Source: an uncultured Succinivibrio sp. (lineage in GTDB: Bacteria; Pseudomonadota; Gammaproteobacteria; Enterobacterales; Succinivibrionaceae). From it: 54,169 nt of DNA. Position numbers and translations under genes: made by a program. A model generated the notes under the pieces. The model had not been told where the DNA came from and searched no databases. It was given only the letters and a program-made list of their open reading frames with translations. The stretch's first letter is position 1, and the number at the start of each line of letters is the position of its first letter. Below, piece after piece: positions 52,593 to 52,764 of this stretch. The stretch lies in contig LR994470.1 of the NCBI GenBank assembly GCA_905186145.1, positions 1,117,376-1,171,544 of the forward strand. The letters are read 5' to 3'.

Positions 52593-52668
52593 TCCTCCTT
52601 AGTTCAGTCGGTAGAACGGCGGACTGTTAATCCGTATGTCACAGGTCCGAGTCCTGTAGGAGGAGCCA
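52593..52668 (+). tRNA. tRNA-Asn (GTT), copy 1
   Basis: 76 nt; perfect 7-bp acceptor stem TCCTCCT/AGGAGGA, G73, encoded CCA, anticodon loop CTGTTAA; T-loop TCCGAGT (C55). Confidence 0.97.
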
Positions 52669-52688
52669 GAAGAAGAATGTTTCTAAGT

Positions 52689-52764
52689 TCCTCCTTAGTT
52701 CAGTCGGTAGAACGGCGGACTGTTAATCCGTATGTCACAGGTCCGAGTCCTGTAGGAGGAGCCA
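52689..52764 (+). tRNA. tRNA-Asn (GTT), copy 2
   Basis: Identical to copy 1; 96-bp tandem period. Confidence 0.97.

Follow-up and report, generated by a model that had tools for sequence, protein, structure and literature searches.

The uridine at position 55 of tRNA, or the pseudouridine made from it, is regarded as near-universal, and its role is debated between elbow stability, a chaperone function of TruB and fitness under stress. Staphylococcal non-proteinogenic tRNA-Gly, which serves cell-wall synthesis, is a natural exception: its T-loop reads UGY, and it is encoded by extra copies that avoid EF-Tu and the ribosome. The closest described case of C55 itself is tRNA-Gly(UCC/CCC) of Lactiplantibacillus plantarum, which carries this base naturally and whose C55U and G57A mutants are charged by GlyRS to the wild-type extent (J Biochem 2023, PMC10464925). 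According to a review of T-loops (PMC7912444), U55 of the canonical loop is stacked on U54 and touches G18, with R57 intercalated between G18-U55 and G19-C56. The literature that we found on C55 or U55C comprised L. plantarum tRNA-Gly, mutant controls and tRNA-Pyl, and nothing on Succinivibrionaceae.

Here we analyze two tRNA-Asn genes with C55 in an uncultured Succinivibrio sp. of the human gut, located near one end of the window, as we call the whole 54,169-nucleotide stretch of DNA that was analyzed. Like the L. plantarum tRNA-Gly genes, they encode a chromosomal elongator tRNA with C55 in an otherwise canonical 7-nt T-loop. Unlike in L. plantarum, the tRNAs concerned are the sole tRNA-Asn and the rRNA-operon tRNA-Ile(GAU), with seven further types affected in relatives and an approximately 50-fold enrichment in one gammaproteobacterial family.

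The tandem tRNA-Asn genes

The two tRNA-Asn(GUU) genes (52593..52668 and 52689..52764, both on the + strand) are 100% identical, 76 nt long with an encoded CCA, and separated by a 20-nt spacer (52669..52688, +). A sigma-70 promoter with a 12/12 consensus match (TTGACA-17 nt-TATAAT; 52521..52549, +) lies 44 nt 5' of the first tRNA, and an intrinsic terminator consisting of an 8-bp stem, a 3-nt loop and a T run (52773..52798, +, alternatively delimited as 52773-52791) closes the two-tRNA operon. ARAGORN identifies both genes as tRNA-Asn(GTT) with 7/4/5/5-bp stems, and each copy scores 67.7 bits against Rfam RF00005, for which the gathering score is 29. Upstream of the promoter, the intergenic region between uvrB and the tRNA genes (52340-52520) has an extremely high AT content and contains long runs of A and of T, which is reminiscent of an UP element or of curved DNA preceding a strong stable-RNA promoter.

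Both copies read TCCTCCT-TA-GTTC-AGTCGGTA-GAAC-G-GCGGA-CTGTTAA-TCCGT-ATGTC-ACAGG-TCCGAGT-CCTGT-AGGAGGA-G-CCA. All stems pair, the D-loop (AGUCGGUA) retains G18G19, and U8, A14, U54, C56, G57, A58, the G53-C61 pair, G73 and CCA are all present, so that the intact stems, D-loop GG, anticodon, discriminator base, CCA end and consensus promoter described in the original prediction were borne out by ARAGORN, Rfam and the promoter match. Among the features of bacterial tRNA-Asn that were checked, the one that departs is U55, the TruB substrate. When the genes are numbered from their 5' ends, T54, C55 and C56 fall at 52646-52648 in copy 1 and at 52742-52744 in copy 2, confirming that the C residues originally reported at 52647 and 52743 (+) occupy exactly position 55, and in the Rfam alignment of copy 1 the sequence GGUCCGA stands against the consensus GGUUCGA.

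In length, anticodon GUU, U1-A72 pair, G73, D-arm and anticodon arm these genes resemble E. coli tRNA-Asn (asnT/U/V/W), and they are 91% identical to an enterobacterial-type Asn gene (L025). The T-arms differ: ACUGG-UUCGAGU-CCAGU, with U55, in the E. coli-type gene, against ACAGG-UCCGAGU-CCUGU, with C55, in the window.

The pair is flanked by uvrB (50219-52279, -) on one side and by panD-panC (52913-54157, -) on the other. No integrase, island, mobile element or toxin gene was found beside the locus, and the integrase link that had been raised for this variant thus finds no support in its surroundings.

The tRNA set of the genome

The genome is assembled as a single contig of 2,038,865 bp with 36.6% G+C. 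Whole-genome annotation with ARAGORN yielded 78 tRNA genes, among which the only Asn genes are the two at 52593-52764; a second, canonical Asn gene was absent genome-wide. The two genes are therefore expected to carry the entire Asn load, AAU and AAC making up approximately 5.3% of codons in ORFs of at least 300 codons. This agrees with the earlier proposal that they are working genes: judging from the gene content, the C55 pair, being the sole Asn genes, probably encodes the cell's working Asn tRNAs, apparently expressed as a two-gene operon. They share with staphylococcal cell-wall tRNA-Gly the status of a natural bacterial tRNA without T-pseudouridine-C, and differ from it in that only position 55 is changed and no canonical Asn copy exists, from which the C55 tRNAs are expected to serve translation. 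A pseudogene or decaying copy was ruled out, given the paired stems, the 12/12 promoter, the lack of any other Asn gene and compensatory T-stem changes in relatives.

The same base occurs in all three rRNA-operon tRNA-Ile(GAU) genes (C1:290548-290624, +; C1:1072617-1072693, -; C1:1963946-1964021, +), which lie outside the window and have the T-arm GATGG-TCCGATT-CCATT. AUU and AUC, decoded by this C55 tRNA-Ile, account for approximately 6.1% of codons in long ORFs, and the C55 tRNAs, reading AAY and AUY, together serve about 11% of all codons. C55 is thus present in 5 of the 78 tRNA genes and U55 is kept in the other 73; the T-loop of the tmRNA (TTCAACT) is normal.

Two other tRNA genes of the genome carry length differences in C runs. 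The tRNA-Ile copy at C1:1963946-1964021 is one C short in the CCCC run of its anticodon stem, and ARAGORN assigns it no anticodon; in one of the two tRNA-Lys(CTT) copies (C1:1111998-1112074), a C run in the T-arm is longer by one C. These differences look like homopolymer-length assembly errors, or real defective copies. They indicate that the assembly is not error-free, and C55 creates a GGTCC site in both Asn and Ile, so that an error at this base, arising from base-calling at a methylated GGWCC site or from a collapsed repeat, had to be weighed. The base-calling explanation was dismissed on the grounds that C55 is also found in tRNAs outside a GGTCC context and that many independent assemblies agree, and the assembly shows the normal base in 67 tRNA genes with GGTTCGA-type loops. 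At least 17 family genomes, assembled independently in different projects, share the C. The identical tRNA-Asn allele is present in two further species genomes of the genus (G002 and G017) and on two independent metagenome contigs, on which three copies all have C and none has T; one of these contigs is 100% identical to the window across 1553 bp. Moreover, the C55 tRNA-Asn genes of relatives use three versions of the T-stem (ACAGG/CCTGT, GCAGG/CCTGC and GCTGG/CCAGT) that differ by paired changes, which points to a working T-arm under selection. On this comparison of sequences, an assembly artefact is effectively excluded.

Distribution and history of C55

The distribution of C55 was surveyed in 98 Succinivibrionaceae species genomes from 17 genera, for tRNA-Asn and tRNA-Ile(GAU) individually and with a generic scan for class-I tRNAs having a standard D-arm and GTCCGA at positions 53-58; the generic scan needs G57, and its counts are accordingly lower bounds. 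Over all surveys, C55 was detected in at least 36 of the 98 genomes, in at least 6 of the 17 genera and in at least 9 isoacceptor types, namely Asn, Ile, Gly(CCC), Gly(GCC), Val(UAC), Thr(CGU), Thr(GGU), Arg(CCU) and Met(CAU). The affected types vary from species to species, and one genome (G111) contains at least five of them. A pattern survey of tRNA-Asn across the family, which had been proposed together with the original prediction, found C55 in 17 of the 98 genomes, spread over 4 genera, and among the 9 genomes with an assembled tRNA-Ile(GAU) gene, 8 have C55 in it (three genera; the exception is G053). The C55 tRNAs fetched from relatives form perfect cloverleaves, all with G18G19, U54, C56, G57 and A58. 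C55 is therefore conserved across related species and is not a private mutation; the variant originally described in tRNA-Asn is real, and it is specific neither to Asn nor to this genome, as shown by the at least nine tRNA types of the family and the three tRNA-Ile(GAU) genes here.

Tandem Asn copies in relatives are nearly always in the same state at position 55, the mixed pair of G088, with one C55 copy and one U55 copy, being an exception of the kind that concerted evolution predicts. The earlier suggestion that the change was fixed in both copies by duplication or gene conversion is well matched by this pattern, and the sequence comparison fits an Asn pair kept uniform through concerted evolution. 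On a TruB protein tree of 58 genomes, which represents one gene and is indicative only, Asn C55 is clustered and not monophyletic, requiring about 8 changes, 5-6 of them forced by well-supported branches. Together with the mixed G088 pair, this tree is compatible either with C55 having been gained and lost several times or with two alleles that coexisted for long and were sorted out by gene conversion within the tandem arrays.

The same data bear on whether C55 might have arisen once in a tolerant tRNA, perhaps the rRNA-operon tRNA-Ile, and then spread by short-patch, possibly GC-biased, conversion between similar T-arms. Family clustering would then reflect copying, with no special cellular factor needed. 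The tRNA-Ile allele is indeed the most widely shared (genera g1, g29 and g30), tandem copies are homogenized, and different C55 tRNAs can have near-identical T-arms, such as ACAGGTCCGAGTCCTG in Asn here and in Val(UAC) of G023. These near-identical T-arms, however, come from different genomes and not from one, the stem of C55 Thr(CGU) differs (CAGTCCGATTCTG), and no conversion tract was demonstrated. We regard such a spread as unlikely, and it would still need functional tolerance of C55, supplementing our main reading, of working tRNAs that tolerate C55, without replacing it.

Within the family, the change at position 55 is narrow. No A55 or G55 was found in family tRNAs, which led us to dismiss a general loss of constraint at this position, and no C55 was found together with A57, A57 being the common state among U55 tRNA-Asn of the family. 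Nor did G18 covary with C55, G18G19 being retained in every fetched C55 tRNA. In these sequences, the U-to-C transition on a G57 background is the only change tolerated in the family, and a same-size pyrimidine combined with the G57 stack may be the least disruptive replacement. Avoidance of TCGA restriction sites, which U55C destroys, was considered and dismissed, the observed/expected ratio of TCGA (0.84) being unremarkable among 4-mer palindromes and TTCGA being kept in 67 tRNA genes.

The T-stem of tRNA-Asn also varies in the genus. In many of its species whose tRNA-Asn has U55, positions 51 and 63 form an A-C mismatch (GCAGG...CCCGC) or a U-G wobble (L012-L015, L016-L020; genomes G009, G019, G021, G010, G003, G006, G013 and G007); in the C55 alleles, by contrast, they form a Watson-Crick pair. 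Affinity for EF-Tu depends to a large extent on the 51:63 pair. To judge by these alignments, the genus may be tuning this pair, and coincidence is possible.

To place these figures against a wider background, the same generic scan was applied to 400 genomes drawn evenly from the class. C55 tRNAs were found in 4 of them, all tRNA-Gly (family versus class, Fisher p = 4.5e-24), and in the other families of the order C55 occurred in 1 of 371 genomes, as one Thr(GGT) in G519. C55 is thus rare overall and sharply enriched, approximately 50-fold, in Succinivibrionaceae. The class hits comprise tRNA-Gly CCC in G453, G293 and G162 and tRNA-Gly UCC in G184. The rare gammaproteobacterial C55 tRNAs outside the family are thus mostly tRNA-Gly with the T-loop TCCGATT; they match the L. 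plantarum case, which suggests that tRNA-Gly may tolerate C55 more widely.

Across 185,579 species genomes, an Asn anticodon arm combined with C55 was found in only 36 stretches, about 19 of which belong to Succinivibrionaceae, a concentration well in excess of chance. The remainder are scattered over Nitrosopumilaceae/Thaumarchaeota archaea, CPR bacteria, two Clostridia of the rumen, a Sodalis endosymbiont, and one genome each of Treponema, Terriglobia and Gemmatimonadaceae. In the Nitrosopumilaceae/Thaumarchaeota tRNA-Asn genes (L073, L088, L091, L101 and L102), C55 is accompanied by A57 in the T-loop TCCAAGT; L087 belongs to the same archaeal group and is not called Asn by ARAGORN. By its sequences, this group looks like a second lineage with Asn C55 as a clade trait. 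Compared with the CPR bacteria that have C55 Asn genes (L079, L082, L089 and L100), Succinivibrionaceae are free-living gut and rumen Gammaproteobacteria with genomes of 2-5 Mb, intact truB and trmA, and a minority of tRNA genes affected.

T-loop enzymes and candidate causes of C55

Relaxed dependence on TruB or TrmA, an explanation offered at the outset, receives no support from gene loss. In this genome, truB (C1:937332-937967, -) reaches 237.8 bits (cut-off 151) and trmA (C1:1656448-1657542) 366.6 bits (cut-off 334.65), both genes being intact. The TruB ORF, of 336 aa and with no extra domain fused, aligns with E. coli TruB (1R3F, 1K8W), the GHTGALDPLA motif with His43 and Asp48 being identical. 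TruB exceeds the cut-off in 92 of the 98 family genomes, including the C55-richest, the misses being incomplete bins or contig ends; our summary count of genomes with intact truB and trmA is also 92 of 98. The GHxGxLDP motif, with its His and Asp, is kept in 58 of 58 extracted TruB sequences. Loss or decay of either gene was therefore dismissed as the cause, an unsurprising outcome because U55 is retained in most of the tRNA genes here (73 of 78).

Both enzymes score comparatively low in the genus, TrmA markedly so. TrmA scores approximately 360-376 bits with the NCBIfam model, against 550-609 in other families of the order, and TruB scores approximately 227-247 bits, against 257-312, gaps that may reflect either divergence of these enzymes in particular or a long branch overall; within the family, TruB scores separate low-scoring from high-scoring groups of genera. 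In one subclade of the genus, Ala replaces the Thr that follows the flipping His43 of TruB (GHAG instead of GHTG) and the catalytic Asp is kept. This form occurs in G001, G012, G015, G016, G022, G023, G089, G096 and G097 (L125, L134, L136, L137, L142, L143, L147, L153 and L154), and six of these nine genomes have C55 tRNA-Asn.

We consider it probable that both genes yield functional tRNAs in which C55 is kept and pseudouridine 55 is absent, a variant that is tolerated and has been homogenized in the tandem pair. The C would remain unedited, so that TruB could not make pseudouridine 55 in tRNA-Asn, and the contact of U55 with G18 in the elbow would be altered; G19-C56, U54-A58 and the stacking of G57 would presumably continue to maintain the elbow. 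The U-to-C change would then be a tolerated transition, near-neutral or weakly compensated, that arose or spread repeatedly in Succinivibrionaceae, in many tRNA types and on a G57 background only, with gene conversion keeping the tandem Asn pair uniform. In published work, a tRNA with U55C escaped pseudouridylation and had an affinity for E. coli TruB (D48N) that was about 5-fold higher, which is consistent with a looser elbow (PMC13492117). We infer the retention of C in the RNA, the absence of pseudouridine 55 and the near-neutrality of the change from gene sequences.

Near-neutrality alone, however, does not explain why C55 is approximately 50-fold enriched in one family, or why T-to-C changes were fixed repeatedly in a genome of 36.6% G+C, against the usual AT-directed mutation bias. 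Taken together, the family enrichment and this direction of change imply some family-specific factor. One form that it could take, to which we assign a small chance, is a factor that makes C and U interchangeable at position 55, be it C55-to-U55 editing followed by pseudouridylation, a new C55 modification recognizing the UCCGA loop or an altered reader of the elbow. Such a factor, if real, would explain why C55 is enriched in the family and was gained and lost so often, why it occurs strictly with G57 and why TruB is fully retained.

Archaeal C8-to-U8 tRNA editing of the CDAT8 type provides a precedent for editing, and TrcP reportedly edits C32 of Vibrio cholerae tRNA-Tyr to pseudouridine. 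In Succinivibrionaceae, a family-specific cytidine deaminase would turn C55 into U55, TruB would then pseudouridylate it, and C and U would drift freely in the gene. The roughly 8 changes for Asn alone and the 9 tRNA types fit such interchangeability, the strict restriction to the family would need a family-specific factor, the invariable co-occurrence with G57 could be an enzyme's recognition rule, and TruB is fully retained even in the C55-richest genomes. Against this, a CDA-type zinc-motif scan of all ORFs of the genome returned only TadA and a dCMP-deaminase-like protein (a divergent enzyme could escape a motif scan), TruB lacks a fused extra domain, and the retention of TruB is explained without editing by the U55 that most tRNAs keep. 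Editing of this kind strikes us as very improbable.

The repeated fixation of T-to-C changes against the AT bias, and an enrichment confined to one host-associated family, could alternatively reflect positive selection for C55 as a means of hiding the T-loop from a reader of U54-U55-C56, for example a toxin that cleaves tRNA, a nuclease of phage or defence origin, or an integrase with the T-arm as its attachment site; tRNA-Asn genes are integration hot spots in Enterobacteriaceae. Nonetheless, neither an integrase or island nor a toxin gene lies next to the locus described above, between uvrB and panD-panC; which tRNA types are affected varies among species, with no obvious common target; and U55 is kept in most tRNA genes of this genome. 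We know of no T-loop-specific toxin that would fit such an escape, which we hold to be quite unlikely.

Returning to the preferred reading, of functional tRNAs in which C55 is tolerated, natural C55 is already known, and what is unusual here is which tRNAs are affected and the family-wide enrichment across multiple isoacceptors with truB and trmA intact. In an ordinary, culturable gammaproteobacterial family, tRNAs that decode more than a tenth of codons carry C55, and TruB is kept for the others. The sharp restriction to this family points to a lineage-specific cause. For annotation, C55 is not to be read as the mark of a pseudogene or as a sequencing error. Close relatives that differ only in having U55 or C55 in the same tRNA constitute natural matched pairs for the contribution of U55 and pseudouridine 55.
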